A stretch of 64,000 bases of DNA from an uncultured virus (IMG/VR IMGVR_UViG_3300005440_000007) (IMGVR_UViG_3300005440_000007); one strand, 5' to 3'. Counted from the first letter of the stretch, positions 39,845 to 57,907 are shown. Notes: generated by a model not told the origin, from the letters alone. Numbers and translations are program-made.

Positions 39845-40395
39845 GCGAAACGCCGAAATCAGAGGTCCGGATTCCCGATAGGCCCAAGATCCCGGAGGTC
39901 CGGGAGGAGACCACGCTCGTCTTGGGAAAGGCCGTCCCCATCCAGGTTGAGAATCCCGGGATGATCTCACGCCGGATCCCCATCGCCGTTTCCTGCGCTC
40001 AGTGCGGCGACAAGATGACGCGCGATCCGGCGACGGTTCCGTTTCAGACGGGCCCGTTCAAGGGAGGATTCCTCTGCAAGGAATGCTGGGTCCTCTACTG
40101 GGACGAGCATCCCGAAATCCTCGCCGATGCCGCCAGCCGCCAATGGGTCAAGCTCGAGGCCCGCGCGATCCGCGTGAAGCGTGCCGGCGCCGGATCCGAG
40201 CTCCTTTTCGAGGAGGACGGGAACCGCGCTTATCTCACGGATCGGGGAACCGTGCTCATCGACCTCAAGCGCCTTCCGTTCGGAGGCCCCGACGAATACG
40301 ATGCCGCACGCTTCCAGATTCTGCTCAAGATGGCCAAAGCATTCGAGGCGAAAGGCGTGGACATGGGCCCCGAGAGGGAAGTCCAGAAGCCCTGA
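39841..40395 (+). CDS. Zn-finger hypothetical protein
   Basis: CxxC twice. Confidence 0.7.
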   Translation: MSETPKSEVRIPDRPKIPEVREETTLVLGKAVPIQVENPGMISRRIPIAVSCAQCGDKMTRDPATVPFQTGPFKGGFLCKECWVLYWDEHPEILADAASRQWVKLEARAIRVKRAGAGSELLFEEDGNRAYLTDRGTVLIDLKRLPFGGPDEYDAARFQILLKMAKAFEAKGVDMGPEREVQKP

Positions 40396-40406
40396 CGTTT
40401 TTTCGC

Positions 40407-40435
40407 TTGACACGCTCGTATACGGCGTATACACT
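40407..40435 (+). promoter_or_regulatory. Sigma70 promoter with CGTATACG operator
   Basis: TTGACA-17-TACACT. Confidence 0.9.
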
Positions 40436-40461
40436 CCTGAAGGTTGAAGTCAGGAGGGGTT

Positions 40462-40884
40462 ATGACGCTCGAACGGGCAGCCAAGGTCTTCAACGGCATC
40501 TACACCATCAAGTCCGCCGCGACCGGCGACCACCGCACCTTCAAGATCCATACCCAGGGCGAAAAGGCTGAGTTCGCCGCCGGCAAGCGCGTCGTCTCGC
40601 TCTTCACCGGGACGGACAACTCCGCCGACGACCACTACACGGGCTTCGCCTTCATCGACGACCGGGGGATCCACGTCTGGGAGAAGAAGCAGGGCGAAGG
40701 TCTCTGGGAGACCTACGCCGACATGATCTGGACGCTCTACCTCGACGGCGCGTTTTCTCGCTGGGCCGAGAAGGGCTACACCATCCTGGGCGAAGGCCGC
40801 TGCGTCCGCTGCAACCGTCTGCTGACGACGCCCGAGTCGATCAAGAGCGGGATCGGACCGATCTGCGCGGAGATGGGGAGGTAG
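40462..40884 (+). CDS. DUF6011-like protein
   Basis: CVRCNRLLTTPESIKSGIGPIC. Confidence 0.8.
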   Translation: MTLERAAKVFNGIYTIKSAATGDHRTFKIHTQGEKAEFAAGKRVVSLFTGTDNSADDHYTGFAFIDDRGIHVWEKKQGEGLWETYADMIWTLYLDGAFSRWAEKGYTILGEGRCVRCNRLLTTPESIKSGIGPICAEMGR

Positions 40885-40886
40885 CG

Positions 40887-41804
40887 ATGCCTGTCAAAGC
40901 TCACAAGGAAGAAAACCCCGCGGTCCAGGAGATTGCCAACCTTCTGGCCGCACGATTCAACGCTGTCGAACCCAAGATCCACGGCGAGCTTCAGGCGGCC
41001 TATCGCGACTACGCGAAGAGGAACCACAAGGCGATCCTCGAGGCCTCCAAGAACCGCGAGAACAAGGGCTACATCAGCGGGTCGCGCGGAGATCGCTGGA
41101 TGGGGTGGTACCAGAACACGAAGTTCCAGCGCGAGAAGGCCATGAAGGAATGGCGCGCCAAATGGCCTGGCGATTCGATCCCGGACCGCGCCTACAAGGA
41201 GATGCCTCCGAACGACGTCAGCACCTGGGAGGAACTCCGGGCTTGGTCGAGCTTCATGAAGCTCGACTACGAACACGCCGACGAACAAGCGAGGTCCGCT
41301 TTTGAAGACGCCCGAGACGCCTTCATCCGCAAGAACGTCGACAAGGTCAGGAACGTCCTGGAGGCCAGGAAAGAGATCGTGAAGGCGGTGGTCCAGTTCG
41401 GATTCCGGAGCAGGGTCTTCACCGGCAGTATCGAGATCCAGCTCCCCGACGGAAGCTTTGAGGCGGAGCTTGGCCTCAAGTACGTGATCCGGACGATCCC
41501 GCATGTCACGCCCTACTTCCAATACCCGCTCAACTTCACGACGGCGACGGTGGGCGGGAAGACCAAAGCGCGGCCGAGCGAGGAGGAGCTGCGGATCCTG
41601 CTGGGCGGGAAGCCGCCGCTTTCCCGCGAGCAGGAGCTCCTCGCCAAGGGATTCTGCCTTCAGAGCGGGAAAGAAATCCCCTACTCTCCGGAGACGGCCT
41701 GGATCACGAACCGGATGAGCCCGTACATGGAGTGCCCCCTCTGCAGGCAGACGGTGAGTGTTCGGAACCACAAGTGGCGCGCCCACATGGGCAGGGGGAA
41801 ATAA
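40887..41804 (+). CDS. Hypothetical protein
   Basis: GGAGG RBS. Confidence 0.75.
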   Translation: MPVKAHKEENPAVQEIANLLAARFNAVEPKIHGELQAAYRDYAKRNHKAILEASKNRENKGYISGSRGDRWMGWYQNTKFQREKAMKEWRAKWPGDSIPDRAYKEMPPNDVSTWEELRAWSSFMKLDYEHADEQARSAFEDARDAFIRKNVDKVRNVLEARKEIVKAVVQFGFRSRVFTGSIEIQLPDGSFEAELGLKYVIRTIPHVTPYFQYPLNFTTATVGGKTKARPSEEELRILLGGKPPLSREQELLAKGFCLQSGKEIPYSPETAWITNRMSPYMECPLCRQTVSVRNHKWRAHMGRGK

Positions 41805-41806
41805 AG

Positions 41807-42025
41807 ATGCCCTACAAGCGCGCTAACGGCAGGGTCCAGGGGCGAGCTTCGAACGGACGCTTCCGGAAGTTCACCGGCGAAGAGTTCGGAGTGGGCGTCT
41901 GCCCGAAGTGCCAGAATCTGACGACCAGGCCCGAGCTGCCCGGCACTGGCTTCATCGACCCTCGGGATTTCAACGCCCGCGTCTGCCCCAATCCAGGCTG
42001 TGGATGGGACTCGAGAAAATCATGA
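41807..42025 (+). CDS. Small Zn-ribbon protein
   Basis: CPKC..CPNPGC. Confidence 0.65.
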   Translation: MPYKRANGRVQGRASNGRFRKFTGEEFGVGVCPKCQNLTTRPELPGTGFIDPRDFNARVCPNPGCGWDSRKS

Positions 42026-42180
42026 AACGGACTGTGAAGAAACGAAGGTGGAAGAAGACCAGGTGCTCGACGTGCCGCTGCGTCGTAGGACCGTCGAAGT
42101 CGTGCCTCTTCTGCCATCTTCGTGTTTGCACCAAACCGGCCTGTCGAGACCAGCACCGAAATTGCGGGAACCGCTCATGA
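42022..42180 (+). CDS. Small basic Cys-rich protein
   Basis: ATGA overlaps at both ends. Confidence 0.6.
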   Translation: MKRTVKKRRWKKTRCSTCRCVVGPSKSCLFCHLRVCTKPACRDQHRNCGNRS

Positions 42181-42488
42181 AAAGTCGAGCCGTCGTAGGC
42201 CAGATGGTCCAGCGGATTCCAGACCTCGGGAACGAGCTCTGCTTTTCCTGAGTAGAAGGCTCGTTCGGGCAGGTTGCCCGAAGGGACGAGGCGCGCCTTG
42301 AAGAGCGGGGAGATCTCAAGCCCTGGTACTACATCGCGCTCTGGTGCAAGTGCATGATCACGTCGCCCGACGAAACGAATCTCTTCGGAGAGGTCAATTG
42401 GCGCGAGGACGAGATGATATTCCTGACCGACGAGCAGGCGCTTGCGCTCATGGAATCCCACGTCTGCAGAAAGCCGGGGCAGCCATGA
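42177..42488 (+). CDS. Candidate selenoprotein (CxxU, in-frame TGA at 42249-42251)
   Basis: Frame open on both sides of TGA; ATGA-coupled to both neighbours; SECIS-like hairpin. Confidence 0.6.
42260..42290 (+). promoter_or_regulatory. Bacterial SECIS-like hairpin
   Basis: TTCGGGCA-GGT-TGCCCGAA, loop at +21 from UGA. Confidence 0.6.
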
Positions 42489-42952
42489 AGACGATCGTCC
42501 TGGTCGGGTGCGGGAAGGAGAAGCTCTCCCGTGCCGCCAAAGCAAAGGACATGTACCTGGGTCCGCTCTTCAAGAAGGCGCGGGCTTACGCGGAGAAGAT
42601 CGGCGACAGCTGGTGGATCCTATCTGCGAAGTACGGTCTCCTCGATCCCGAGGAGAAGATCGAGCCCTACGATGAGATGCTCACGAAGAAGCCGAAGAAC
42701 GAACGCCACTGGTGGAATCTCAACGTGCGGAACTCGATCTCCTGCAATCTGCTCAAATGGATCGAAGTTAGCGGTCCCAACGTGCGATGCGAACCGGCGA
42801 AGTTCGTCTGCCTTGCCGGCGAGCCGTATCTCGAGTTTTTCGAGATCGCCCCGGAGATCCGGAAGTGCTGCATCATTGAAAAACCGATGGCCGGAATGGG
42901 AATCGGCCAGCGGCTCCAGTTCCTGTCCCGGCCCGTAAATCGTCGAGCCTGA
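42485..42952 (+). CDS. DUF6884 (YaaA-like) protein
   Basis: LVGCGKEK..A.DMY.G.LF..ILSAKYGL. Confidence 0.8.
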   Translation: MKTIVLVGCGKEKLSRAAKAKDMYLGPLFKKARAYAEKIGDSWWILSAKYGLLDPEEKIEPYDEMLTKKPKNERHWWNLNVRNSISCNLLKWIEVSGPNVRCEPAKFVCLAGEPYLEFFEIAPEIRKCCIIEKPMAGMGIGQRLQFLSRPVNRRA

Positions 42953-42966
42953 TCTCTTTTTTTGGC

Positions 42967-42995
42967 TTGACACGTCCGTATACGGCGTATACACT
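42967..42995 (+). promoter_or_regulatory. Sigma70 promoter with CGTATACG operator
   Basis: TTGACA-17-TACACT. Confidence 0.9.
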
Positions 42996-43020
42996 GTGGG
43001 TAGGTAAGACAGGAGGGGTT

Positions 43021-43410
43021 ATGACGAACACGCCTACGGGGATCTGGGAACTGATCCTCGCGTCCGATCTGGTCAAGGTCGGCACGCATCCCGAGGACGG
43101 GGAAGACATCATCCGCGAGCTGTGGTACATCCAGGCGATCAACACCGCCGGGCGCCGGTTCCGGCACCAGGCCCTCACCACGCAGGCGGAGGCCGACGAG
43201 CGCCTCGCACTGCTCGTCCTGGACGGCGGCGTCGACCCGGTCCGGAGCGACGGCTGGGACGAGACGTATCCGGTCTACGGCTCGGTCGAGTACCAGCTGC
43301 AGGAGCCCGAGCTCGTCGCGGCCGAGCGTCGCGAGATCGAAGCGGAACCCATCCCCCTTTGGGTGAAGCAGGCCGAAGCCGCGCGCCGGAAGGGCGAGGT
43401 GCGTCGATGA
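43021..43410 (+). CDS. Hypothetical protein
   Basis: AGGAGGGGTTATG start. Confidence 0.8.
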   Translation: MTNTPTGIWELILASDLVKVGTHPEDGEDIIRELWYIQAINTAGRRFRHQALTTQAEADERLALLVLDGGVDPVRSDGWDETYPVYGSVEYQLQEPELVAAERREIEAEPIPLWVKQAEAARRKGEVRR

Positions 43411-43625
43411 AGACGACCGTCAACCCGTTCCCGATGTCGGTGGCTCTGGTTGCCGGGATCCTGACCGAGATGAGCGTCGGCGCGCTGGCTCGGGTCTTCG
43501 GCACCTACCACCTGGAGGTCATGGAGGCGATGCTCAAGTCGGACGAGGGGTATCGGTCCAAGCATCTCCTCCGCAAGATCAACATGGCGATCAACAAGAT
43601 CCTGGATCGGAAGGTGTCCCGATGA
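43407..43625 (+). CDS. Hypothetical protein
   Basis: ATGA overlaps. Confidence 0.65.
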   Translation: MKTTVNPFPMSVALVAGILTEMSVGALARVFGTYHLEVMEAMLKSDEGYRSKHLLRKINMAINKILDRKVSR

Positions 43626-43984
43626 TGACGGCAGATCAGGCCCGACGGCAGGCGGGATCCCCCGCGCGCGCGGCCGCGCTCTCCAAGCGCTACGCGAAGC
43701 TGGGCTCAAAGGCGATCGACGAGCAGGAGTTCGGGAAGGCCTACATCTTCCTTCAGAAGGCCAGTGCGTTCGCGGCGGCGCTCGGTATCGTCCAGGGCGA
43801 GTTCAACCGGATGGCCAAGCGGATCGGCGCTCCGACGCGTCCCTTCGCGAAGTGCTCCAACTGCAAGGCCCGGAAACCCGACGTCAAGAAGCGGGTTGAC
43901 CCCTACAGGGAGGACGTCGAGAACAAGAAGGTCTACTGCAACCTGTGCGACGACTGCGAGAAGTCGGCCAAGGAAGCGATCTAA
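43622..43984 (+). CDS. Zn-finger hypothetical protein
   Basis: CSNC..DPY..LCDDC. Confidence 0.7.
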   Translation: MMTADQARRQAGSPARAAALSKRYAKLGSKAIDEQEFGKAYIFLQKASAFAAALGIVQGEFNRMAKRIGAPTRPFAKCSNCKARKPDVKKRVDPYREDVENKKVYCNLCDDCEKSAKEAI

Positions 43985-43993
43985 GGAGGGGTT

Positions 43994-44236
43994 ATGTCGA
44001 AGGAAGCTCAGCTTCACGAGTTCCCCGCGGTCGGGAAGTACCGCGTTCGTATCGTGCGAGATCTGGAGAGCAAGGCGCCGGCCTCGCTCGATATTCGGGA
44101 GTTCGTCAACCCGGCTCGCGGCCAGACGTTCTCCGGATTCACGCGTCGCGGGATCCGGCTGGCCACCACCAAGGAAATCATGGAGCTCCGGGACAGCTTG
44201 AACGCCGCTCTCTCCATGCTCGAGGTGAAGTCATGA
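43994..44236 (+). CDS. PC4-like ssDNA-binding protein
   Basis: LDIREF...FTRRGIRL. Confidence 0.75.
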   Translation: MSKEAQLHEFPAVGKYRVRIVRDLESKAPASLDIREFVNPARGQTFSGFTRRGIRLATTKEIMELRDSLNAALSMLEVKS

Positions 44237-44979
44237 GAACGACGCTCAAATGGCGCGCCGAGTTCTACAGGCCCGGTCCCGGTACGTCCGAGACCGTGAT
44301 CGGCTTCGTCGATGGCGATGAGAAGACGGTGGCGCTGGCCGAGCCGCCCCAGGGCGCGCTCTCCCGGCTCAAGCTCCTCACGCCGCCCGACATCCGCCTG
44401 GGAGACCATGTCCGTCACGACAACGGCGAGGACGAGCCCGTCGTCGGGATCGTGACGCGGGTCGGGAAGCCCTATCCGTCCGGCGGCTTCAACGTGGATC
44501 TCTTCAACGGCGTCACGGGGACGGTCTTCTGCGAGAACTGCACCGTCGTCTTCCGGCCGCGCCACAAGGTCTGGAAGGAGGAGGAGTTCCTCGCGCTCTT
44601 CCCGCCGAAGTCGGATGAGACGCCCGAGGTCACGCTCGTGGGTCGAGAGCCTGCGAGGACCGTCCGGGTCCTGCGCGGGAAGGACGGCGCCTGGGGCGTC
44701 ACCTTCTGGAACGGCGAGGTCCAGATCGACTCCAAGGCCTATAGCGAGAAGGAGTACGCATGGCTCCGCGGCCTTCTCCGTGCTGCGAACGCCTGGATCT
44801 TCGCCGCCCCCGTGCAGATCGGAGACTGCTGGAGTGAGACGATCAACCAGGGGCTGCGCGACGTCGAGGTCGTGGCGGTCAAGAAACTGCGCTACCGGAT
44901 CGAATACGAGATGCCCAACGCCGGGATGATGGGATCCTGGCAGACCGGCATCCTGATCGGCGGAAAACTTTACGCTTGA
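44233..44979 (+). CDS. Hypothetical protein
   Basis: ATGA overlap; GAGG RBS. Confidence 0.75.
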   Translation: MRTTLKWRAEFYRPGPGTSETVIGFVDGDEKTVALAEPPQGALSRLKLLTPPDIRLGDHVRHDNGEDEPVVGIVTRVGKPYPSGGFNVDLFNGVTGTVFCENCTVVFRPRHKVWKEEEFLALFPPKSDETPEVTLVGREPARTVRVLRGKDGAWGVTFWNGEVQIDSKAYSEKEYAWLRGLLRAANAWIFAAPVQIGDCWSETINQGLRDVEVVAVKKLRYRIEYEMPNAGMMGSWQTGILIGGKLYA

Positions 44980-45055
44980 TAACCCCTCCTCGGCCTCCCG
45001 GTCTCTGCTCTGTTCCGGGAGGCCCTTTATGGGCGGCCGCGCGTCGGCCGTCCAT
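44979..45055 (+). ncRNA. Anti-RBS plus double-hairpin element, copy 1
   Basis: ATAACCCCTCCT followed by two hairpins. Confidence 0.5.
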
Positions 45056-45073
45056 GAGGTCTCTGGAGGAAAG

Positions 45074-45319
45074 ATGAAGCTTCTGCGCTGGCTCAAGTGG
45101 CAGTTCTTCAGGCTCCTGGGCTACGGCAACTGCTGGGAGTGCAAAGAGTTCGCTCCCCTGTCCTGGCTCCACGTCAAGTTCACGGACAAGACGAACCAGA
45201 CTCAGGTCGAGATGTCCGGTCACTTCTGCTCGCCGTGCTGGCACAAGCGTATGGAGCCGTGGAAGAAAAAGATGGACGAGTTCACCGAAGAGTTCAACAA
45301 GACCTTCAAGGGATTCTGA
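45074..45319 (+). CDS. Zn-finger hypothetical protein
   Basis: GGAGG RBS. Confidence 0.7.
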   Translation: MKLLRWLKWQFFRLLGYGNCWECKEFAPLSWLHVKFTDKTNQTQVEMSGHFCSPCWHKRMEPWKKKMDEFTEEFNKTFKGF

Positions 45320-45320
45320 G

Positions 45321-45476
45321 ATGCCGGGAAAGACGGGGAAGCGCTCCAAGCCGCCTACACCGTGCGTCGACTGTGGAGCCGACCTCCGTGGGAAAGCGTT
45401 TTATCGAGATGGCAAGAAGGACCGCTGCGAGGCCTGTGGCGAGAAGTGGATCAAGGCAAAGTGTGCAAAGAGCTAA
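45321..45476 (+). CDS. Small Zn-finger protein
   Basis: CVDC..CEAC; 51 aa. Confidence 0.6.
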   Translation: MPGKTGKRSKPPTPCVDCGADLRGKAFYRDGKKDRCEACGEKWIKAKCAKS

Positions 45477-45495
45477 CCGGTAATTAGGAGGGGTT

Positions 45496-45879
45496 ATGAA
45501 CGAGGAAGTGACCAAGCTGGCGAAGGCGGCGATGACCGCCGCGGTGAACCATCTCGAGGCGTGTCAGGCAGGCAAGATCGTGAACCACCCGTTCGTGAGC
45601 CGGTCTCTCCCGATGCTCCAGGCGGCGCTCAAGGAGATCGACAAGCCCGACGACCGGCCGGCGCTCGGACGAGACATGGCCAAGAAGCTCGTCCAGTTCA
45701 TCACCGCGCGCCTCGAGCGGGAGAGTTCTTTCCTGACGCCGAATCCCCAGACGTTCATGAACGACGCCTACGGCCTCCTGGACCTGATCCGGAACGAGGC
45801 GAAGCTCAAGCCCGAGGACATCGACGGCTGGATGGTCGAGGCACAACCGGACAAGAAGATCAAGGGCAAGAAGTCGTGA
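45496..45879 (+). CDS. Hypothetical protein
   Basis: AGGAGGGGTTATG start. Confidence 0.8.
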   Translation: MNEEVTKLAKAAMTAAVNHLEACQAGKIVNHPFVSRSLPMLQAALKEIDKPDDRPALGRDMAKKLVQFITARLERESSFLTPNPQTFMNDAYGLLDLIRNEAKLKPEDIDGWMVEAQPDKKIKGKKS

Positions 45880-46220
45880 GCCACGCAACCGGAGCCGTCC
45901 GATTCCCCGACGGGAAGGTGATGTTCTACCTGTACAACGGGTCATCCGAGGTCGCGATCTCCCATCTCTACGACACCATGCAGGGCGTCGTGGACAGCTG
46001 GGGGAAAAGCGCCTGGTTGGTCTGCAGCTGCCCGAAGATGGAGCCGGTCGAGATCTACTCGAGCTACGGCGGCGGTTTCACCTACCCGGGCGAAGCGTGC
46101 CGGACCTGCAGGGCTCTGCACGGCCCCAGGTACACGCCTGAAGCTGTGGACGCGACGGTCAACGCCGAGCCTGAGTGGCACAAGGACATTCCTCCTGAGC
46201 TCATGAAGACAAATTTCTGA
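45876..46220 (+). CDS. Phage hypothetical protein
   Basis: GTGA overlap; MSHATG.VRF.DG..YNG. Confidence 0.7.
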   Translation: MSHATGAVRFPDGKVMFYLYNGSSEVAISHLYDTMQGVVDSWGKSAWLVCSCPKMEPVEIYSSYGGGFTYPGEACRTCRALHGPRYTPEAVDATVNAEPEWHKDIPPELMKTNF

Positions 46221-46227
46221 GGGGCCT

Positions 46228-46743
46228 ATGATCACCAAAGAGCTTGCGAAGGACATCCTGGCGCGTCGCGGGATCTGCACGATCAGCGGCGGTTATGGGA
46301 TGGGGATCTGTGCATTCGCGGGGATGTTCACGACGCGTCCGCTGATGGGGATCTGGCACGAGTCCGAGGTGCCCACGGATCAGGAACTCGAACAGATCCA
46401 GTCCTACCAGGAGTTCCAGATCCGGTCCTTCTACAACCCCACCTGGACGGAGAAGCTGCTGGCGATGAAGCCGCCCCAGGACGAGGCCGTGAACACGCTC
46501 ATCTTCTGGAAGGGATTCCGCGAGCAGCCCGGCGTCTGGGCCTATCGCCGGATCACCTGGAAGTACGGTCCGACGTTCGTCGACCGGAAGAAGAATGGGA
46601 ACCGACTCCGTACCGCCGAGGCGATGTTCGACACGATCGAGGATCTCCTTCACGACAGGTTCGTGAAGTGGAAGCGAGAACACGGTGGGATCTTCGCGCC
46701 CAAGGTCCCGACCCAGCCTGACAGCTGCGAGAAGGCGTCGTAG
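46228..46743 (+). CDS. Hypothetical protein
   Basis: GAGGGG RBS. Confidence 0.75.
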   Translation: MITKELAKDILARRGICTISGGYGMGICAFAGMFTTRPLMGIWHESEVPTDQELEQIQSYQEFQIRSFYNPTWTEKLLAMKPPQDEAVNTLIFWKGFREQPGVWAYRRITWKYGPTFVDRKKNGNRLRTAEAMFDTIEDLLHDRFVKWKREHGGIFAPKVPTQPDSCEKAS

Positions 46744-46751
46744 GAGGAGCT

Positions 46752-46970
46752 ATGGAAGCGACCAAAAGCGAACTGCACGAGGTCACGAAGATCGGCATCT
46801 TCGAAGTCCAGGTCTGTTCGCTTGCCAGCGAGGACGATGCTCTCGCCTGGGTCCAGAGCGCGTGTCCTTCCGGTACGACCGGAAACTGGAAGAAATCGGA
46901 GAAGCCCGAATACAGGCCGGTCGACTGCGCCAACGGCGGCGGACGCACGCACTACGTGTTCGAGGCCTGA
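46752..46970 (+). CDS. Hypothetical protein
   Basis: AGGAGG RBS. Confidence 0.75.
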   Translation: MEATKSELHEVTKIGIFEVQVCSLASEDDALAWVQSACPSGTTGNWKKSEKPEYRPVDCANGGGRTHYVFEA

Positions 46971-46977
46971 GGTCGTC

Positions 46978-47322
46978 ATGGTGAAATGCGGCCTTTGCGG
47001 TCACAACAAGAACCACGACTTCCCGGACGGATGCCCGGCCTCGGTCTGGCCCAAGAAAGGGAGCTCGACTCGGTGCGGCTGCAAGACGTACACCATGCCG
47101 CCCCTCCGGAAGGTTCTTGGGTTGATCGGCGTCCCGGTCGAGGACCGTCCCGGCGCGGCGGTGATCTCCAAGGAGCTCTACGAGTGCGGTCACGCCTTCT
47201 CGGAGAAGAGCGACATCTACGGGACGACCAACGCTTTCCGGCGGCGATGCTTGGCCTGTGCCAAAGGGAGGCCGCCGGATCCGAAGCTACTTGAGCGGGC
47301 CAAGAACTGGCCCAAGAAGTGA
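46978..47322 (+). CDS. Cys-rich hypothetical protein
   Basis: GAGG RBS. Confidence 0.7.
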   Translation: MVKCGLCGHNKNHDFPDGCPASVWPKKGSSTRCGCKTYTMPPLRKVLGLIGVPVEDRPGAAVISKELYECGHAFSEKSDIYGTTNAFRRRCLACAKGRPPDPKLLERAKNWPKK

Positions 47323-47332
47323 GGAGCGAAAG

Positions 47333-47548
47333 ATGTTCTACTGCGATGCCTGTGCCAAGAAGAACCGGTGGCCCATCGGCCTGGTCCGGTCCTCCGGCGC
47401 CTGTGAGGTCTGCGGCAAGAAGAGGGAATGCAGCGACGTCTCCTCCTCCAAGCTTCCGGATCCGGCGCCGAAGCTCCACAACGATCTCGAAAGCCAGGCT
47501 CCGCCCTGGCAGGACAATCCGGATTTCGAGAGGTTCCATCGGGACTGA
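47333..47548 (+). CDS. Zn-finger hypothetical protein
   Basis: MFYCDAC..W..S.G.CEVC. Confidence 0.75.
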   Translation: MFYCDACAKKNRWPIGLVRSSGACEVCGKKRECSDVSSSKLPDPAPKLHNDLESQAPPWQDNPDFERFHRD

Positions 47549-47551
47549 GCC

Positions 47552-47761
47552 GTGGTCTGTTTCAGGTGCAAGAGACGCGTCGATCCGATCCTGACTTACG
47601 CCCGGCCGCACGGGAAGTATTCGAAGTGCGAGGATTGCCGGCGGATCGCCGCGAAGAAGAGACACGATAAGAGGAAAACCGCTTTGGAGGCGCTTGGATT
47701 ATGGATCGTCTCACGAAACTGCTCTTCGCGGCAATTGGCTTTGCAGTCGTCCAAACCGTGA
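47552..47761 (+). CDS. Zn-finger hypothetical protein
   Basis: CFRC..CEDC. Confidence 0.55.
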   Translation: MVCFRCKRRVDPILTYARPHGKYSKCEDCRRIAAKKRHDKRKTALEALGLWIVSRNCSSRQLALQSSKP

Positions 47762-47862
47762 CCACCGTCGCGTTCTTTCAGAATGCGATCGGCGCGGCTT
47801 CGATGATCTTCTGCTGGGCAGTGGTCGTCGTCGTGGCCAGACGCAGAAAGGCGATCCGCTAA
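47758..47862 (+). CDS. 34-aa membrane peptide
   Basis: GTGA overlap; TM plus basic tail. Confidence 0.5.
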   Translation: MTTVAFFQNAIGAASMIFCWAVVVVVARRRKAIR

Positions 47863-47865
47863 CGC

Positions 47866-47893
47866 TTGACAGCCCGCGTATACGCGGTATACT
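47866..47893 (+). promoter_or_regulatory. Sigma70 promoter with extended operator CCGCGTATACGCGG
   Basis: TTGACA-16-TATACT. Confidence 0.85.
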
Positions 47894-47900
47894 CACAGCC

Positions 47901-48182
47901 ATGGAATACAGAATCTGCCGTCTCTGCGAGGAGTCCGATGACACCAAGCGCCTCATCCAATACGCGGTTCGCTCCTACGCCCACTGGGGTTGCTTCCTGA
48001 AGCGCAAGTCCCTCGAGGACGGCCTGGCCTGGATCCGGGGACTTCACCCCCATGAGATTCGGCGCGCGCCGGTCCTGATCGTCCAGGAATGGCTGGACGC
48101 CCGCGGCTGGGAAGGGGATCGGTCCATGGAGCTCCTGCTCCAGGCCGTGAAGGATGCCGAGAAGCGGGAGGCGAGGCTGTGA
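47901..48182 (+). CDS. Hypothetical protein, probably leaderless
   Basis: ATG 7 nt after the -10 box. Confidence 0.75.
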   Translation: MEYRICRLCEESDDTKRLIQYAVRSYAHWGCFLKRKSLEDGLAWIRGLHPHEIRRAPVLIVQEWLDARGWEGDRSMELLLQAVKDAEKREARL

Positions 48183-48610
48183 GGCTTCTCGCCTACCACG
48201 CCACCACCACGGACCGAGCGGCCAGGATCCTGACCGAGGGGTTCCGTTTCGACGTAGAACACAAGAGCGACGCGGGGGACTTCGGGGAGGCGATCTATTT
48301 CACGACCTGCATGGCCCGAGCTCGGGCGATCGGGAGGGCGATCCTGGAGGTCCATCTCGAGCTGTCGAATCCCATCGAGCTCTCCCAGTCGGAAGCCTAC
48401 GCCCTGGTGATCGACAAGCTTGGGTTCGATACGATCCACGGCCACGGGGTCGCTGGCGCCAGCATCCTCGAGGCGAAGAAGGCGCGGACACACTTCCTGG
48501 CGCTCGGTCACGACGCTCTTGTTTCAAATCGAGGCCGCCGTGATCTCGAGATTGCCGTCTACGATCTCAAGGCGATCCTGCAGGTGGTGGTCCGGAAGGC
48601 GGCGGTATGA
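48179..48610 (+). CDS. ADP-ribosyltransferase (H-Y-E type)
   Basis: YHAT, FGEAIYFT, GHDAL, EIAVYD. Confidence 0.75.
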   Translation: MRLLAYHATTTDRAARILTEGFRFDVEHKSDAGDFGEAIYFTTCMARARAIGRAILEVHLELSNPIELSQSEAYALVIDKLGFDTIHGHGVAGASILEAKKARTHFLALGHDALVSNRGRRDLEIAVYDLKAILQVVVRKAAV

Positions 48611-48870
48611 GCTACGTCTACGACCTCCAGCGTCGGGTATGGACAGAACAGATTCGCCCTCTCGTTGTTGCGAAGCACGGTGAAATGTTCGCTTTCCACT
48701 TCGAAGCTTTGATGGAAGAAATGCACTCGGCGAACCACAACGTTCCTTCGAAGGATGGCGTCTTCAAGGGCGACGGAATCAACAAGGATCCTGGAGTCTG
48801 CCGGGCAGCGCGCGAGCTCGAGGAGTATGTCGAGGAGATGAGGAAAAAGAGTCCCGGAGGTTCGTCGTAG
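48607..48870 (+). CDS. Hypothetical protein
   Basis: ATGA overlap. Confidence 0.7.
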   Translation: MSYVYDLQRRVWTEQIRPLVVAKHGEMFAFHFEALMEEMHSANHNVPSKDGVFKGDGINKDPGVCRAARELEEYVEEMRKKSPGGSS

Positions 48871-49139
48871 TGCATGGGATCCGGTTCCCCTGGGAAGAGA
48901 TCACCCGCTGCTCGAGATGCCTAAGGCCGCTCTGAGTGATCAACAGTCTGCTCTTCGGCGGCGCCGGAGGATATGACGCGCTCAGACGGAGGGTGGAGTC
49001 GTTGGAGATGGACCTGGGAGAAACCTGTTCCGGTGGATGCGAGCACTGGGAAAAGACCAGAGATGGTCGCCAGCGGTTCGCAGAGCTCAAGCGCATCAAC
49101 CAGGAGCGAAAGAAGGCGGGACTCAGTCACGTTGCCTAG
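48870..49139 (+). CDS. Candidate selenoprotein (CxxCxRPL-U, in-frame TGA at 48933-48935)
   Basis: GGAGG RBS before GTG 48870; frame continues past TGA; SECIS-like hairpin. Confidence 0.5.
48946..48977 (+). promoter_or_regulatory. Bacterial SECIS-like hairpin
   Basis: TCTTCGGC-GGC-GCCGGAGG, loop at +25 from UGA. Confidence 0.5.
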
Positions 49140-49145
49140 AATACT

Positions 49146-50801
49146 ATGAAGCTTTTCTTTCCTCTCGAGACGCTCAAGGCGCTCGCCAAGGCCGGATGCA
49201 AATCGGAAGACCTCCGTGACGAGGAAGAGGTCTACCGCAGCATGGAGCTCGAGATCCGAGAGATCGTCCCTTCGGACTTTGCGATCATCCGGAAGGTTCT
49301 GAACAGGGAAGAGCACTATTCCCATATCGAGAACCGGCGGGTTCTGAAGAAGCTCCAGGCACTCGACGACCTGAGAGGATCTCCTGCCGACAAGAAAAGC
49401 ATCACGCTCAAGACCCTCGAACTCATCCCGGAAGCGATCCGGGAGATCATCGGAAACCTGCCCCATAAATGGGTCTTCAGGACCGATGAGATCTACGGCG
49501 CTATGATGCCCTACTTCGTGGAGGACGCGGAGTATCATCCGGCCGAGCGGACCTCCAACGGTTACACGCCGGCCAGGGTGTCGATCGAGGTCAAGGCAAT
49601 GTGCCGCGGAGAAGAGGTCGGTCGGACGATCACGCTTCATAAGAGCGATCTCAAGGGGACGCTGCTTGAGATTCTGGGTCGGCAGGAAACTGTTCCGGAG
49701 ACGCCTGAGCTGATCGCCGACTATGAGGCGGATCTCAAGTACTACAAGGAACACCATGCGAAGACTGGAGACCAGTACATTGCGGTAGGCCGTGGGAAGC
49801 CAAGCGACTCGAGCGTGTGGAGCAAGAAGTTCGTCAACCTGGAGCGCGACGGCCGCCCCACGAAAGTCGTGATGGATGATCTGGAAGATCTTGGGGAGGA
49901 ATCCGGCTACACCGAGACGGACTTCTGGTCTAAGGCCCGTGTCAGGAAGCGCGGCGGAGACGAAAACGAGCAGGCATTCCCTCTCCCGATCCATCCGGTT
50001 GTTTCGGTCTTCAGCCTGGAGTCGCACGAATACGTCGACGCCCACATCACGACGCTCAAGCCCTACGAATACGACACGTCGATCGTGGAGAAGATCGTGC
50101 TTCCCGAGGATCACAAGCGGCTGATCGGGACGCTGACGAAGAGCTCGGCCGACCGATTCGAGGATATCGTTCGGGGCAAGGCGGCGGGCGTCATCATCCT
50201 CTGCAGCGGGGTCCCTGGGACTGGGAAGACCTTGACAGCCGAAGTCTACAGCGAGGTCGTGAAGCGCCCGCTCTATGCCGTCCAGTGCGCCCAACTGGGG
50301 ACCGACGAGGAGGAACTCGAGAAGGAGCTTTCTGACGTTCTCTCCCGCGCGGCCAGGTGGAAGGCTCCGCTCCTGATCGACGAGGCCGACGTCTACATTC
50401 ACGAGCGCGGCGAGAACATCCGACAGAACGCGATCGTCGGCGTCTTCCTACGGCTCCTCGAGTACTTCCGGGGGATCATGTTCCTGAACACCAACAGGCC
50501 GACCGTCGTTGACGACGCAATTCTTTCGCGCGTCACGGCTCATGTCCGATACTCTCCTCCTGAGAAGAAGGAGGATGTCCGGAAGCTGTGGAAGCTGATG
50601 GCCACCCAGTTCGGCGCCGTCAACCTGGACATCGAAAGGGCGACCGAGGAGTTTCCGGGCATCAGCGGGCGCAGCGTTCGCCAGCTCGTCCGGCTCTCGG
50701 CAATGACGCATCCCCAGAAGGAAATTTCTGTTGAGACGCTCAAGTGGGCGGCTAAATTCTACGACTTTCCGGAACTTCCGGATCGAAAGGAGAAATCGTG
50801 A
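49146..50801 (+). CDS. AAA+ ATPase
   Basis: GVPGTGKT, LLIDEAD, LRLLEYF.G. Confidence 0.9.
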   Translation: MKLFFPLETLKALAKAGCKSEDLRDEEEVYRSMELEIREIVPSDFAIIRKVLNREEHYSHIENRRVLKKLQALDDLRGSPADKKSITLKTLELIPEAIREIIGNLPHKWVFRTDEIYGAMMPYFVEDAEYHPAERTSNGYTPARVSIEVKAMCRGEEVGRTITLHKSDLKGTLLEILGRQETVPETPELIADYEADLKYYKEHHAKTGDQYIAVGRGKPSDSSVWSKKFVNLERDGRPTKVVMDDLEDLGEESGYTETDFWSKARVRKRGGDENEQAFPLPIHPVVSVFSLESHEYVDAHITTLKPYEYDTSIVEKIVLPEDHKRLIGTLTKSSADRFEDIVRGKAAGVIILCSGVPGTGKTLTAEVYSEVVKRPLYAVQCAQLGTDEEELEKELSDVLSRAARWKAPLLIDEADVYIHERGENIRQNAIVGVFLRLLEYFRGIMFLNTNRPTVVDDAILSRVTAHVRYSPPEKKEDVRKLWKLMATQFGAVNLDIERATEEFPGISGRSVRQLVRLSAMTHPQKEISVETLKWAAKFYDFPELPDRKEKS

Positions 50802-51346
50802 GCGATCCCGTGACGATGGAGAAGTCCGAGCTCGAGGCGATGAAGAACGACATGAAGAAGGCCGTCGAGGTCAATGACGGTCTCAAGAAGGAATTGGAGG
50901 TCACGCGCCGGGAGCGCAACCAGGCCCGGGATGAGACCTTCCGCGCCCGAAGAGAGGCCGAGCGTCTCCAGAAGATCGGCCCGGAAAAGAAGACCCTGGA
51001 CGAGAACAAGGGCCTTCGTACTTCCGTCTCGGAGGCTCACAAGAAGATCGCCATGCTCGAGAAGGAGCTTGAGGCTTCCAAGATCGAATCCGAAGGACGT
51101 CGAAAGGAAGTTTCCCAGCTCCAGCAGAAGCTCAGCAACGTCCAGAACACCATGGACATGATGCAGAGCGCCAGGAACAAGGCCCAGGTCGACCGCGACA
51201 AGGCGCTCGTCGATCTCCAGTCTTCTGCTGACGCCTACGGAAAGCTTCGCGAAGAGTTCGAGGCCTTCAAGAAGGCTGTCGCCGATAAGGCGACCGAGGC
51301 GAAGGGCCCCAAGGCTCAGCAGAAGCCGGAGCCGGCGAAGGCCTAA
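50798..51346 (+). CDS. Coiled-coil protein
   Basis: AGGAG RBS. Confidence 0.75.
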   Translation: MSDPVTMEKSELEAMKNDMKKAVEVNDGLKKELEVTRRERNQARDETFRARREAERLQKIGPEKKTLDENKGLRTSVSEAHKKIAMLEKELEASKIESEGRRKEVSQLQQKLSNVQNTMDMMQSARNKAQVDRDKALVDLQSSADAYGKLREEFEAFKKAVADKATEAKGPKAQQKPEPAKA

Positions 51347-51705
51347 TGGGATGCAGGATCGGAAAGTGGACCCGTGACCGCTGCGGGTCCTGCCAGCGTT
51401 TCCGATCCCTATATCGGGGAGAGTGCGTTCCGTGCCGGCAGCCCGAGGACCGTCGAGAACTTGTGGATCACGGGGTTCCCCCTGGATCGGCAGACGCCCT
51501 GGCTCAGCTCCTGAAGCGTTGCGGCGACAGGAAAATGGATGCCGCTCAGGCTAGGACGGTTCTCGAGGCTGTCCATCCGATTCTGATGGAGAACGTCATC
51601 GTCTCCGAAGACGGAAAGCTTTCCCTGAAAAACAAGAAGCTGATCTGGATCCGGAGGGGGTGCTGGGAGCCCGGAGAGATTCGCGATCCCCCGCATACGA
51701 TTTAG
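51346..51705 (+). CDS. Zn-finger hypothetical protein
   Basis: TAATG coupling. Confidence 0.65.
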   Translation: MGCRIGKWTRDRCGSCQRFRSLYRGECVPCRQPEDRRELVDHGVPPGSADALAQLLKRCGDRKMDAAQARTVLEAVHPILMENVIVSEDGKLSLKNKKLIWIRRGCWEPGEIRDPPHTI

Positions 51706-51707
51706 GC

Positions 51708-51736
51708 TTGACGTCACAGCGTATACGGCGTATACT
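51708..51736 (+). promoter_or_regulatory. Sigma70 promoter with CGTATACG operator
   Basis: TTGACG-17-TATACT. Confidence 0.85.
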
Positions 51737-51779
51737 TCTGAGGTACGGAAGGATGGGCCTTCCGATAGGAGGGGTTACG

Positions 51780-52091
51780 ATGAGCGAGCAGATCTTCACC
51801 ATGCGCCTCAGGTCTGTGGGGAACCCGGACTGGGACCAGTACGCACCGATCTCGGAGCCCAAGAACGTCACCGGCTCCAGCCTCGCGGAGATGAGGAAAG
51901 CCTGCGAGGACTACATCGAGCAGTGGAACCTCGGCGGCGGCAACTGGGTGGACCCCGTCGTCAAGCAGGGCTCCAAGGTCATCGGTCACTTCTCGTACAA
52001 CGGCCGTCTCTGGGAAGGCCGTCCGGGCCGCTGGGACCTCAAGAAGAAGGAAATTCTGATCGACGCCGCCCCGGCGGGAGGCGTGCTGTGA
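51780..52091 (+). CDS. Phage hypothetical protein
   Basis: GNPD..Q, LGGGNW, SYNGR.W. Confidence 0.8.
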   Translation: MSEQIFTMRLRSVGNPDWDQYAPISEPKNVTGSSLAEMRKACEDYIEQWNLGGGNWVDPVVKQGSKVIGHFSYNGRLWEGRPGRWDLKKKEILIDAAPAGGVL

Positions 52092-53611
52092 CGACGACCG
52101 CCGACTGGTTCACCGTCGACAAGGAGGGGCTGGCCAAGCTCCTCGAGCGCAAGGGCAAGGAGTTTGTCCTCTACGAGCTCATCCAGAATTCCTGGGACAC
52201 AAACGCGAAGAGGGTCTTTGTCACCCTGGACGAGAGCACCGTTCGTGGCTACGCCCTTCTGGCCATCTCGGACGACAATCCGGATGGGTGGAAGAACTTG
52301 ACCCACGCCTGGACCCTCTTTGCCGAGAGCGACAAGAAAGCGGACGCTGAGAAGCGCGGCCGTTTCAACCTGGGCGAGAAGCTCGTCCTGTCACTTTGCA
52401 AGATGGCCGAGATCGAGACCACCACTGGCGGCGTGCGGTTCGATGAGACCGGCCGCCATGTGACCAGAAAGAAGCGGGCTGCTGGCTCCACGTTCAGCGC
52501 CGTCATCCGGATGACGCAGGGGGAGCGGATCTCCATGAAGGCGGCGATCATGAAGTTGATCCCGCCCTCTGGCGTGGCGACCTGCTTCAACGGCACCGAG
52601 ATCCCGTCCCGGACGCCTCTTCGCAAGATCGAGGCGACCCTCCCCACCGAGATCGCCGACGCGGAAGGGATCCTGAAGCGTTCTTCCCGGAAGACCCTCG
52701 TCGAGGTCTACGAGGCTCTTGAGGGAGAGACCCCGTCGGTCTACGAGATGGGAATCCCCGTTGTTGAAACCGGCGACAAGTGGCACTACAACGTCCTGCA
52801 GAAGGTCCCACTCAACGCTGACCGCGACAACGTGACGCCGGCCTATCTCCGCGAGCTCCGAACGCTGGTCCTGAACGAAATGTACAACGAGGTCACCAAG
52901 GAGGACGCTACCCGCTTCTGGGTCCGTGACGCATCCGAGGATGAGGACGTCTCCAGGGAAGCTGTCGAGCACGTCGTCACCCAGCGCTTCGGAGAAAAGC
53001 GCGTGATCTTCGATCCGAGCGACCAGGAAGGCACTAAGCTCGCGGTTTCGAAAGGCTACACGGTGATCGCCCCCGGATCGCTCTCGGGTGCCGAGTGGGC
53101 GAACGTGAAGCGTCACGCCGCGGCGCTCCCGGCCGGGCAGGTCACTCCGTCTCCCAGGCCCTACTCCCCCGACGGGCAGCAGATGGACGTCATTCCTCTC
53201 GAGCGGTACACGGAGGGGATGAAGCGCATCGCGCAGTACGCCAAGGAGATCGCCTTCCGCCTGATCGGCTGCGAGATCCAGGTGGACATGGTCAGCAAGG
53301 CGACATGGCCCTATTCGGCGACCTACGGCGGTCTGCCGCCCCATCTGACGTTCAACGTCGGGCGCCTGGGACGGCTCTGGTTCGAGTCGGGACCGAACGC
53401 CGCGGTCGACCGTCTTCTCATTCACGAACTCGGTCACCACTATTCGAGCGATCACCTGTCGGAGGAGTATCACGACGCGCTCTGCAAGTTGGGGGCGCGT
53501 CTGGCGCTCCTGGCGATTGCCGAGCCCGAGTTCTTCAAGCGGCACAAGCGCGTCCATGAGGATCTCGAGGCTATCGTGGGCTGGTCCAAGAAGCAGGGAG
53601 GTGGGCGATGA
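52088..53611 (+). CDS. GHKL ATPase fused to a HExxH zincin-like domain
   Basis: ELIQNSWD, DDNPDG, GRFNLGEK; HELGH. Confidence 0.75.
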   Translation: MTTTADWFTVDKEGLAKLLERKGKEFVLYELIQNSWDTNAKRVFVTLDESTVRGYALLAISDDNPDGWKNLTHAWTLFAESDKKADAEKRGRFNLGEKLVLSLCKMAEIETTTGGVRFDETGRHVTRKKRAAGSTFSAVIRMTQGERISMKAAIMKLIPPSGVATCFNGTEIPSRTPLRKIEATLPTEIADAEGILKRSSRKTLVEVYEALEGETPSVYEMGIPVVETGDKWHYNVLQKVPLNADRDNVTPAYLRELRTLVLNEMYNEVTKEDATRFWVRDASEDEDVSREAVEHVVTQRFGEKRVIFDPSDQEGTKLAVSKGYTVIAPGSLSGAEWANVKRHAAALPAGQVTPSPRPYSPDGQQMDVIPLERYTEGMKRIAQYAKEIAFRLIGCEIQVDMVSKATWPYSATYGGLPPHLTFNVGRLGRLWFESGPNAAVDRLLIHELGHHYSSDHLSEEYHDALCKLGARLALLAIAEPEFFKRHKRVHEDLEAIVGWSKKQGGGR

Positions 53612-54486
53612 ATACGACGGCGGAGAAGCGGTATGCGATCTACGGGATCAAGAAAAACCAGAAGGTCTATCTTTCCGACGAGGAGAACCTCGTGAAGGCC
53701 AAGGCCTGGGCCCGGGAAGTGGTCGGGGGTCTTGGCCGTCGCGTCAAAGGCGTGAGGTACATCCAGACCGAGGTCTGGGATCGCCAGGCCAACGGCGGCG
53801 ACGGCGGGCCCGTCTTCGGCGTCTGGATCGGGCCGCTCGGGAGCATCAAAACCACGGACGGCAGCACGTCGAAGGCGGCCGCTGAGGAGCCTGAGACGGT
53901 CGAGATCAAGGCGACCGGCACCTATGCCGATCGCGCGGCGGCGCTGGCAAAGGCTTTCGAGAAGACGCTCAACAAGGTTCTTGGGGCGAACTATCTCTAC
54001 GAGAAGCGTGGAGAAAACCCCAAGGATCCGGGCTTCAACTGGGACCTGAAGGACAAGGTCTCGATCCATATCAGCAGGTCCGGAGGCGCGGATCCCAAGA
54101 TCTGGGTCTACCGGGACGATCCGATCCACGAGCCGCCGAACAACAGCGACTGGAAGCACGAGTACTTCGAACGCGACTACGAGGACAAGCTCTATCACGT
54201 CGGGAGGATCGCCGTCTACGTGAAGGAGCAGATGGAGTACAACCGGAAGAAGCTCGCCGAGCACAACGCCAACGTGCAGAAGTTCAACGAGGACATGCAG
54301 GGGACGCTGATCCCGACCGGCGTCTCGGTCGAGCGCAATCCCAAGACGGGCTTCTACGAGCTCCACATGACCGCGACGATCCAGGAACTGAGTGGTGAGG
54401 AAGTGAAGTTCGTCGTCGCCAAGTGTCAGGATTTCAAGCAGGCCGTCGAGCCGTTCGAGAAAAAGAAGGGGAACGCCGATGCCTAA
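53608..54486 (+). CDS. Hypothetical protein
   Basis: GGAGG RBS; ATGA overlap. Confidence 0.75.
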   Translation: MNTTAEKRYAIYGIKKNQKVYLSDEENLVKAKAWAREVVGGLGRRVKGVRYIQTEVWDRQANGGDGGPVFGVWIGPLGSIKTTDGSTSKAAAEEPETVEIKATGTYADRAAALAKAFEKTLNKVLGANYLYEKRGENPKDPGFNWDLKDKVSIHISRSGGADPKIWVYRDDPIHEPPNNSDWKHEYFERDYEDKLYHVGRIAVYVKEQMEYNRKKLAEHNANVQKFNEDMQGTLIPTGVSVERNPKTGFYELHMTATIQELSGEEVKFVVAKCQDFKQAVEPFEKKKGNADA

Positions 54487-54640
54487 GGAGCCGAAGGAGT
54501 GCTCGGCCATCAAGCCTCCATGCAGATGTCCGGAGGGGAAAGGCGTCGAGCATATCCACACGCCCGCGGGGCTCATGAACTACCGGGCATCATCGTCACT
54601 GCCTTCCCGAGTCGGCGATACGGGGCGAAGAGTTCGATGA
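54479..54640 (+). CDS. 53-aa hypothetical protein
   Basis: Overlaps both neighbours. Confidence 0.45.
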   Translation: MPKEPKECSAIKPPCRCPEGKGVEHIHTPAGLMNYRASSSLPSRVGDTGRRVR

Positions 54641-57679: not shown

Positions 57680-57691
57680 TTGGAGGGGGCG

Positions 57692-57907
57692 ATGGCGGAT
57701 GCCGATTATCTGAAGTTGCGGGAGGAGATCTGGAAGGCTCTGGGCGTCCCAGTGACAAAGCAGAGTGGAAGCCCAGTGGAAGATGTGAGGAAACTGGCGG
57801 ATGCTGCCCGAAAGGTCGTCGACGTTTTCTCGAGCAAGGACAAGGTCGGATGGTCTCCAAGCAAGTTGCGGGATGCCGTCGCAGAACTGATGCGCGCCGT
57901 GAAATAA
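57692..57907 (+). CDS. Hypothetical protein
   Basis: GGAGG RBS. Confidence 0.7.
   Translation: MADADYLKLREEIWKALGVPVTKQSGSPVEDVRKLADAARKVVDVFSSKDKVGWSPSKLRDAVAELMRAVK

Follow-up and report, generated by a model that had tools for sequence, protein, structure and literature searches.

In Staphylococcus aureus, the motif UCCCCUG in icaR's 3′ untranslated region (3′UTR) pairs with its own mRNA's Shine–Dalgarno (SD) region, blocks ribosome loading and forms a substrate for RNase III, in a report whose authors consider that it could work in cis or in trans (PMC3868564). In Bacillus subtilis, anti-SD-like words of 8–12 nucleotides (nt) located more than 500 nt from a ribosome-binding site (RBS) are described as pairing with it, lowering translation and speeding decay; engineered 12-mers at such distances brought the protein level down by 44%, with pairing seen by dimethyl sulfate (DMS) probing, and words of this kind are depleted from B. 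subtilis genes (Gill et al. 2025 preprint, PMC12697547). C-rich single-stranded stretches of Gram-positive small RNAs (sRNAs), such as 6C of Actinobacteria, are reported to target the G-rich SDs of several mRNAs without a chaperone (PMC6486639), and in B. subtilis hbs, pairing between the 5′ and 3′UTRs is described as linking stability to initiation at a strong SD (PMC5737220). Here we analyzed a 64,000-nt stretch of DNA from an uncultured virus (IMG/VR IMGVR_UViG_3300005440_000007), referred to as the window and treated as a novel tailed-phage genome. In it, an exact complement of an RBS motif used by five genes, hereafter the seed, stands at the head of two elements, E1 (44979–45059) and E2 (57914–57994). 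We consider it quite possible, though somewhat short of an even chance, that the seed is a conserved anti-RBS presented by hairpins and pairing with the signature RBS within a polycistronic mRNA or in trans.

The element resembles icaR-type 3′UTR anti-SD sequences and sRNAs with C-rich seeds, and it belongs to no curated RNA family; our search of the open-access literature found no comparable phage element. In 6C, RoxS and RsaE, the C-rich stretches lie in hairpin loops, and these RNAs have their own transcription and terminators. The phage seed, in contrast, is linear and lies 5′ of the hairpins, with no promoter, terminator or Rfam match found for it. Phage T4 shuts off its early mRNAs by RegB cleavage at GGAG in SDs and by RegA translational repression; the present phage would likewise turn down a gene set via a signal common to their RBSs, but where T4 employs an endonuclease and an RNA-binding repressor protein, the proposed effector here is an RNA segment of the phage's own transcript. 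Two features of an icaR-type element are found at the locus: a C-rich anti-SD motif lies past a sense-strand stop codon, and it matches the SD region, as an 11–12-nt exact complement of five RBSs; unlike the 7-nt icaR motif, located 260 nt past its stop, this complement covers both SD and spacer and starts 0–6 nt past the stop (PMC3868564). It also differs from icaR in that it occurs twice, matches five polycistronic RBSs and is placed 5′ of two hairpins, and in that the evidence comes from sequence. Like the B. subtilis words, it is a long-range, pyrimidine-rich complement of the SD and of the bases behind it, and the sense strand of the window's block of plus-strand genes shows the same depletion; unlike those reporter insertions, of a type described as avoided by selection, the phage word is retained, duplicated and placed in a conserved structure (PMC12697547), which implies use rather than avoidance. 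The hbs case also concerns pairing of mRNA ends; its pairing, unlike that of our model, is described as protecting from RNase Y cleavage with no masking of the SD, and the two share no sequence (PMC5737220).

The motif AGGAGGGGTTA occurs seven times exactly in the window, both strands counted, against 0.01 expected (none of 100 dinucleotide shuffles reached seven), and nine times against 0.38 expected with one mismatch allowed; the exact count excludes chance. Five copies are plus-strand RBSs and two are reverse complements on that sense strand. Both antisense 11-mers lie 0–6 nt past a stop codon and 5′ of two GC-rich hairpins, behind which the next SD follows. At E1, ATAACCCCTCCT (44979–44990, plus strand) is exactly the reverse complement of AGGAGGGGTTAT. 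Its first A doubles as the final base of the TGA that closes open reading frame (ORF) 44233–44979, and an in-frame TAA comes next; the 11-mer occupies 44980–44990 and extends to 12 nt when the A of TGA is counted. Hairpin 1 (44992–45024) has a 10-base-pair (bp) stem (GGCCTCCCGG / CCGGGAGGCC; arms 44992–45001 with 45015–45024) and a 13-nt loop, TCTCTGCTCTGTT, that includes TCTGCT, and hairpin 2 (45025–45059) joins 45025–45039 to 45045–45059 by 15 pairs, three of them G–U, around a 5-nt loop. The order at E1 is TGA stop, TAACCCCTCCT, one base, two hairpins, 6 nt, SD GGAGG and ATG 45074; this SD and ATG (45066–45076) open the next ORF (45074–45319), and it is with them that CCUCC pairs locally, over 5 bp, in folds of short range. 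A sequence-only reading made earlier had described the 12-nt complement at a stop codon, the 10-bp hairpin with TCTGCT in its loop, the second hairpin and the lack of a start codon behind the minus-strand motif, all of which we could reproduce: no ATG, GTG or TTG lies within 18 nt.

E2, the second sense-strand reverse complement, had escaped that reading. Its seed, TAACCCCTCCT (57914–57924), lies 6 nt past the TAA stop of ORF 57692–57907, and the TAA within the seed is in frame with that ORF. Two hairpins follow: hairpin 1 (57925–57955) has up to 13 bp, a TCTGC loop and one U–G pair that exists only in plus-strand RNA, and hairpin 2 (57950–57994) is a branched stem with the apical C-rich loop CCCCCUCU, whose foot competes with the 3′ arm of hairpin 1. 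SD GGGAG and ATG 58032 complete the order. As RNA, the seed is the pyrimidine-rich UAACCCCUCCU, directly behind the stop and exactly complementary to the RBS AGGAGGGGUUA(UG). The E1 core (87 nt) folds at −49.1 kcal/mol (z −6.4) and the E2 core (91 nt) at −46.5 kcal/mol (z −3.1). In these folds, the E1 seed of both the window and its relative L029 is unpaired and 5′ of two hairpins, while three bases of the E2 seed enter a weak 3-bp hairpin in the minimum free energy (MFE) structure of the core. In these predictions, the element has a single-stranded seed beside stable structure, as in a 3′-derived sRNA.

The five plus-strand copies, which the sequence-only reading had already assigned to gene starts, proved to be as described. 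AGGAGGGGTTATG precedes ORF 40462–40884, which encodes a DUF6011 protein (RBS 40452–40464), ORF 43021–43410 (RBS 43011–43023), ORF 43994–44236 (RBS 43984–43996) and ORF 45496–45879 (RBS 45486–45498, 496 nt 3′ of the E1 seed), and AGGAGGGGTTA(cgATG) precedes ORF 51779–53611 (RBS 51767–51777). Three of these five genes are first cistrons of operator-bearing promoters, located at 40407–40435, 42967–42995 and 51708–51736, where the RBS belongs to a repeated promoter–leader cassette made up of TTGACA, a spacer with GTATAC-N3-GTATAC and a TACACT or TATACT −10 box, and lies 15–30 nt past the −10. The sequences upstream of RBSs 43984 and 45486 are unrelated to this cassette, so the 11–13-mer is conserved in its own right. 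ORF strings opening with a motif RBS also close at the elements. Those from 43011 or 43984 run to E1, ORF 43994–44236 overlapping (ATGA) the ORF 44233–44979 that terminates there, and the string from 51767 (promoter 51708) runs to E2; no terminator-like site was found on the plus strand between 42967 and 44979 in the terminator scan. All seven copies lie at gene boundaries within 18 kb, which would also suit a double-stranded DNA site, an asymmetric 11-bp target of a phage DNA-binding protein used in either orientation and overlapping RBSs by chance, and the separate operator-like repeats show that this phage uses repeated DNA sites. We regard such a site as scarcely probable: the five plus copies keep a constant 0–2 nt to the start codon, as an RBS would, the antisense copies are tied to a stop codon and to hairpins with G–U pairs and compensatory changes, and no candidate binding protein was identified.

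The promoters themselves form a family, TTGACA-N17-TAcACT/TATACT, with plus-strand members at 40407–40435, 42967–42995, 47866–47893 and 51708–51736, in which the spacer and −10 contain the near-palindrome GTATAC-N3-GTATAC (four exact copies and one with a single mismatch, against 0.00 expected). One copy of the repeat, at ~1856–1905 (near 1875), reads TTGACT-N17-TATATT on the minus strand, upstream of a minus-strand gene starting at ~1833. From its sequence, the near-palindrome looks like the operator of a dimeric phage regulator that overlaps the −10. The family is conserved in the relatives L026, L027, L029 and L030. Between promoter 51708 and RBS 51767, a leader hairpin, CGGAAGG-atggg-CCTTCCG (51744–51764), stands 2 nt before the RBS. 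Eighteen IMG/VR matches to CGTATACGGCGTATAC were considered as relatives and set aside, as they had no TTGACA or RBS-motif context.

Judged by their sequences, E1 and E2 have the pattern of two members of one ~85-nt RNA element type. We built a covariance model from four E1 sequences (the window, L027, L028 and L029) and searched the window plus 14 loci (202,446 bases, both strands), for which the E-value calibration is rough. The search recovered three E1 copies in the sources searched and then E2 at full length (57911–57992; 21.7 bits, E 0.005), the only non-E1 match with E <0.01; the other five matches had E values from 0.079 to 3.4. In the model-guided alignment of E1 and E2, the seed is identical at 11/11 positions and the remainder at 26/75. 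With E2 added, both sides had changed in 13 of the 25 stem pairs, 96% of cells being standard pairs; in hairpin 1, five of the ten E1 pairs were changed on both sides in E2. None of 500 shuffles matched these stem covariation values, and slid controls paired at 35–55%. The alignment leans towards structure because it was fitted to the model and comprises only four distinct sequences. Taken together, the seed identity and the two-sided pair changes indicate that the seed is constrained in sequence and the stems in structure. The same contrast bears on the idea that E1 and E2 are functionless relics, inverted or duplicated leader modules (hairpin plus RBS on the minus strand) that hitch-hiked in a recombination tract. 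Read on the minus strand, the order hairpin then AGGAGGGGTTA does resemble the leader of ORF 51779, and in L029 high similarity reaches into the neighboring coding sequence. Two independent relics would nevertheless have had to preserve 11/11 bases each, although hairpin identity has fallen to 35%, on a sense strand otherwise depleted of anti-SD-like words, and the minus strand has no start codon or ORF after the motif; we hold this explanation to be very unlikely.

We then turned to conservation in relatives. For the 248-amino-acid protein encoded upstream of E1, a search of 5.8 billion clusters yielded 16 homologues (E ≤ 0.001) with 54–100% identity, and the alignment of these homologues recovered 16 metagenomic loci, six of them syntenic (L025–L030). 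All four syntenic relatives that extend past the stop (L025, L027, L028 and L029) carry E1 with the exact seed, so the conserved complementarity that the sequence-only reading called for holds wherever the site is reached; L025 is essentially the same genome as the window and adds no independent information. In L029, the flanking protein is 59% identical, the DNA is 68% identical over 2.1 kb and a different gene follows E1, while E1 itself is 90% identical and the TAA of the seed motif serves as the actual stop codon. Between the window and L029, 9 of 18 loop positions but only 2 of 62 seed and stem (non-loop) positions differ (Fisher p 9e-6); within hairpin 1, 8 of 13 loop positions differ and no stem position does. 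L028 shows a compensatory C–G to U–A change in hairpin 2. In the relatives, 10 of 13 homologous sites preserve the RBS motif exactly, also where the sequence upstream or the gene downstream is not the same. Two ORFs lie between E1 and RBS 45486 in the window, and one in L029.

More distant loci with the same gene, 14 of which were read and most of which are low in GC, carry a GC-rich hairpin close behind the stop in 8 of the 14; TAACTAAC precedes the hairpin in four of those eight (L031 and L033–L035), and the CCUCC word in none. Because distant relatives have the hairpin without CCUCC, the boundary hairpin seems, from sequence comparison, older than the seed. Within this set, L034 and L035 have the CTAACTAAC form of TAACTAAC after the homologue of ORF 44233–44979, giving stop codons in two frames, and in L031, L033, L034 and L035 a hairpin of the GGGGGC-TTT-GCCCCC type stands before the next SD, at a conserved position and with no anti-SD word.

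Several other roles for the two sites were tried and rejected. Translation from ATG 45029 instead, for which the SD would lie inside hairpin 1, is contradicted by the ACG found there in L029. A frameshift or read-through signal is contradicted by the TAA codons that follow the stops in frame and by the lack of a slippery site ahead of them. For E2 as a minus-strand terminator, 12 nt separate the T-run from the main hairpin, and just five pairs make up the alternative stem. Finally, a mimic of the canonical 16S rRNA 3′ tail would have only CCUCCU in common with it.

Which RBSs the seed can reach was assessed by duplex energies against 46 plus-block start regions, a comparison with all start sites that the sequence-only reading had proposed. 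The energies were bimodal and set the five motif RBSs apart (−21 to −23 kcal/mol), with the next-best partner, the SD of ORF 57692 just upstream of E2, at −16.4 kcal/mol; the immediately downstream RBSs reached −9.7 (45074) and −11.7/−9.3 kcal/mol (58032). In the MFE structures of longer transcripts, the E1 seed forms a 12-bp helix with RBS 43011 (transcript 43002–45060) or with RBS 45486 (transcript 43002–45540), and in neither case pairs with the local SD. CCTCC is depleted on the plus-block sense strand (36 vs 55 ± 7 in shuffles) and not in the minus block (52 vs 55), so the two retained seeds run against the trend.

These observations suggest the following mechanism for a hairpin-presented anti-RBS. 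The seed would pair intramolecularly with the motif RBS that opens the same ORF string on a polycistronic mRNA or, alternatively, act in trans as a hairpin-protected 3′ fragment. Pairing would block 30S binding and turn down the motif-RBS gene set, and might also make an RNase III duplex or open the mRNA to decay. The role of the hairpins would be to hold the seed accessible and to shield the fragment, and a ribosome terminating at the adjacent stop would cover the seed transiently, so that repression would rise as upstream translation falls. Sequences, non-randomness, shared architecture, conservation pattern and thermodynamic preference were computed directly; from these, we infer that the seed pairs in vivo, whether it does so in cis or in trans, and with what effect. 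A bolder version, which we think improbable, is that E1 and E2 are stable 3′ operon remnants that accumulate with mRNA synthesis and decay and, by way of the common 11-nt seed, titrate the signature RBS of first cistrons behind the operator-controlled promoters, making up a self-timed RNA switch with translation termination as its sensor.

A number of observations weigh against an anti-RBS role. On the structural side, the local unpaired probability of the seeds is moderately high only (86th and 96th percentile), the folds prefer the plus strand slightly (E1, −49.1 vs −45.2 kcal/mol; E2, −46.5 vs −45.7 kcal/mol), and the motif RBS nearest to E2 is 6.1 kb upstream. Moreover, in short-range folds of 120–146 nt, CCUCC pairs with the SD of the next gene. 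Local masking or coupling would follow if CCUCC paired across the hairpins with the GGAGG SD of the next gene (45074; 58032), the match to distant RBSs being incidental; translation of the next gene would then require that the closing helix be melted by a ribosome completing the upstream ORF, and a seed abutting the stop codon is ideally placed for such melting. Short-range folds of the window, L028 and L029 indeed form a three-way structure that is closed by CCUCC:GGAGG together with part of the start codon (z −5.1, −4.1 and −3.6, respectively), and E2 folds analogously (z −3.1). The pairing involves just 5 bp, however, with a duplex of about −9 to −12 kcal/mol against −22 kcal/mol for the motif RBSs, and it is trivially predicted because almost every gene has a GGAGG-type SD. 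Nor would it account for the UAACCCC that E1 and E2 share unchanged amid their divergence; the downstream gene is a different one in L029, and whole-transcript MFE structures favor the 12-bp long-range helix. We therefore rate local masking as distinctly unlikely.

The comparative evidence against an anti-RBS is that seed/RBS covariation, which the sequence-only reading had named as a check, was not found in the relatives, since both partners are nearly invariant. The homologue of ORF 43994 is preceded in L026, L029 and L030 by a variant RBS, AGGAGGGGCTA or AGGAGGGGTCA; each of the three is a single-base T to C change at position 9 or 10, and the seed does not compensate for it. The absence of changes in the L029 11-mer is not significant alone (P 0.17), and the conserved block that holds E1 reaches back over the final ~100 nt of the upstream gene (92–98% identity in L029), an extension that makes a recent recombination tract possible. 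The comparison of relatives covers the E1 site alone, and these relatives represent one lineage. The earlier proposal of an anti-RBS sRNA or long-range cis element is thus partly supported, by complementarity beyond chance, by the second and otherwise non-homologous site E2, by retention in the four relatives and by structure-type conservation of the hairpins.

Promoter and terminator signals likewise speak against an sRNA form of the anti-RBS. The promoter scan gave no sigma-70-like promoter upstream of either element, the plus-strand terminator scan listed neither, and no U-tract follows the hairpins, whose tails are CUUUAU (E1 hairpin 1) and UUCCGU (E2); consequently, no defined sRNA ends can be predicted. 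Hairpins without a U-tract, together with the 13-nt loop of E1 hairpin 1, fall outside the definition of a rho-independent terminator, and the own promoter or intrinsic terminator required of a 3′-derived sRNA was found at neither E1 nor E2. Of the 24 sequencing runs listed for window DNA, two are recorded as RNA, with small shares, and 18 DNA runs contain at least half of the words sampled from 42900–46000; we compared two RNA and two DNA runs over 40300–58200. The two soil metatranscriptome runs yielded 12 and 5 scattered short (~200-nt) contigs, which cannot show RNA ends, and among the RNA contigs listed, none lies over E1 or E2. Among the variants listed from the two RNA and two DNA runs, none falls inside E1 or E2.

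The hairpins might instead act as boundary structures (partial terminator, RNase III site or barrier to 3′ exonucleases) joined to a linear box for a protein or transcription complex, in a nut-like manner, with the RBS complementarity secondary. Lambda nut sites such as nutR combine a boxA-like linear element with a boxB-like hairpin, bound by an N-type protein and Nus factors, and it is only in layout (linear box, then hairpin, behind the first ORFs) that E1 and E2 resemble them; no N-like protein was identified. That distant low-GC relatives also carry a post-stop hairpin (8/14 loci) and no CCUCC fits this explanation, as does the UCUGC that the loops of E1 and E2 have in common. The loop motif is absent from L029, however, the hairpins have no U-tract and neither is in the plus-strand terminator scan, and no Rfam family was found over 38000–60000, where the sole match was hvt-mir-H (23.5 bits vs a gathering threshold of 96, E 0.31). 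An exact 11–12-nt RBS complement present twice without a pairing role would also be very unlikely, given 0.01 copies expected. On balance, we see boundary hairpins with a nut-like box as unlikely, if worth keeping in mind.

The window has a G+C content of 62%. ORF calling based on G+C at third codon positions (GC3) placed minus-strand genes from ~500 to 27,600 and plus-strand genes from ~27,570 to 58,600. Products of the plus block include two helicases, a Sak4-like annealing protein, a primase, an HNH endonuclease and an RNase T-type exonuclease, along with the DUF6011 protein, an AAA protein, a Mom-like protein and many small unknown ORFs; replication-type genes are thus present in the block that holds the motif RBSs. 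Thirty proteins outside the plus block were scanned; none of those from the minus block matched Pfam (0/28) or PHROG (0/29), and this block (500–27600) may be an unrecognized virion module. A probable capsid-region protein (20745–21467; GC3 0.95) has as nearest Atlas clusters unnamed ones that are 100% viral, and a minus-strand protein to the right of the plus block (62735–63814) matches the phage family GP88. This match, the entirely viral Atlas neighbors and the family-less minus-block proteins are the grounds on which the window is treated as a novel tailed phage.

Searches for closer kin gave little. Region 43900–46000 had no match among 50,697 phage records (blastn), in which the helicase had distant matches only, at <36% identity (tblastn). 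Among IMG/VR contigs, no relative was found via the 248-amino-acid protein, the helicase or the promoter plus RBS pattern, and alignment A3 matched just four, distantly and in the C-terminal domain. Neither alignment A3 nor the promoter plus RBS pattern found anything in 185,579 species genomes, so neither host nor prophage was located; window DNA occurs in many soil and rhizosphere metagenomes. PHROG, Pfam and NCBIfam returned nothing for 44233–44979, 45074–45319, 45321–45476, 57692–57907 and 58032–58382, a PDB profile search with alignment A3 gave a chance match alone (E 0.21), and scans for transfer RNA and transfer-messenger RNA were negative.

Other features of the genome deserve mention. 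The operon closing at E2 contains the Mom-like DNA modification protein (54499–55431; Pfam Mom 3e-20, PHROG 1384 2.5e-29), and its first ORF, 51779–53611, encodes a 610-amino-acid protein with weak HATPase_c_3 or sacsin-type ATPase matches. Homologues of the latter, at 39–53% identity, occur in six viral contigs (28–459 kb, G+C 35–60%) without synteny; the gene appears mobile, given its presence in non-syntenic contigs of very different G+C. These six contigs were rejected as relatives, being non-syntenic and without the motif. Runs of small Cys-rich (CxxC-type) ORFs lie between larger genes at 41807–42190, 45074–45476 and 46978–47760. In the minus block, a very strong hairpin, GGGGAGGGGCGC-gtgta-GCGCCCCTCCCC (20686–20716; −34.9 kcal/mol in a 46-nt window), directly follows the gene with the highest GC3 and is probably the terminator behind a highly expressed structural gene.

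Potent masking of an RBS by a distant anti-SD has been demonstrated only recently in bacteria, in a preprint that frames it as something avoided (PMC12697547). The phage described here appears instead to keep, duplicate and structurally present an anti-SD matched to the private RBS of a subset of its genes, a regulatory logic that can be read from uncultured soil phages with almost all proteins unknown. If the pairing is real, it would constitute compact, RNA-only co-regulation of a viral gene set, a natural phage case of 5′–3′ or trans RBS targeting and an orthogonal RBS/anti-RBS pair ready for use in synthetic circuits; and if the operon-remnant switch were true, the phage would shut off a gene set with neither a protein nor an sRNA gene dedicated to the task.

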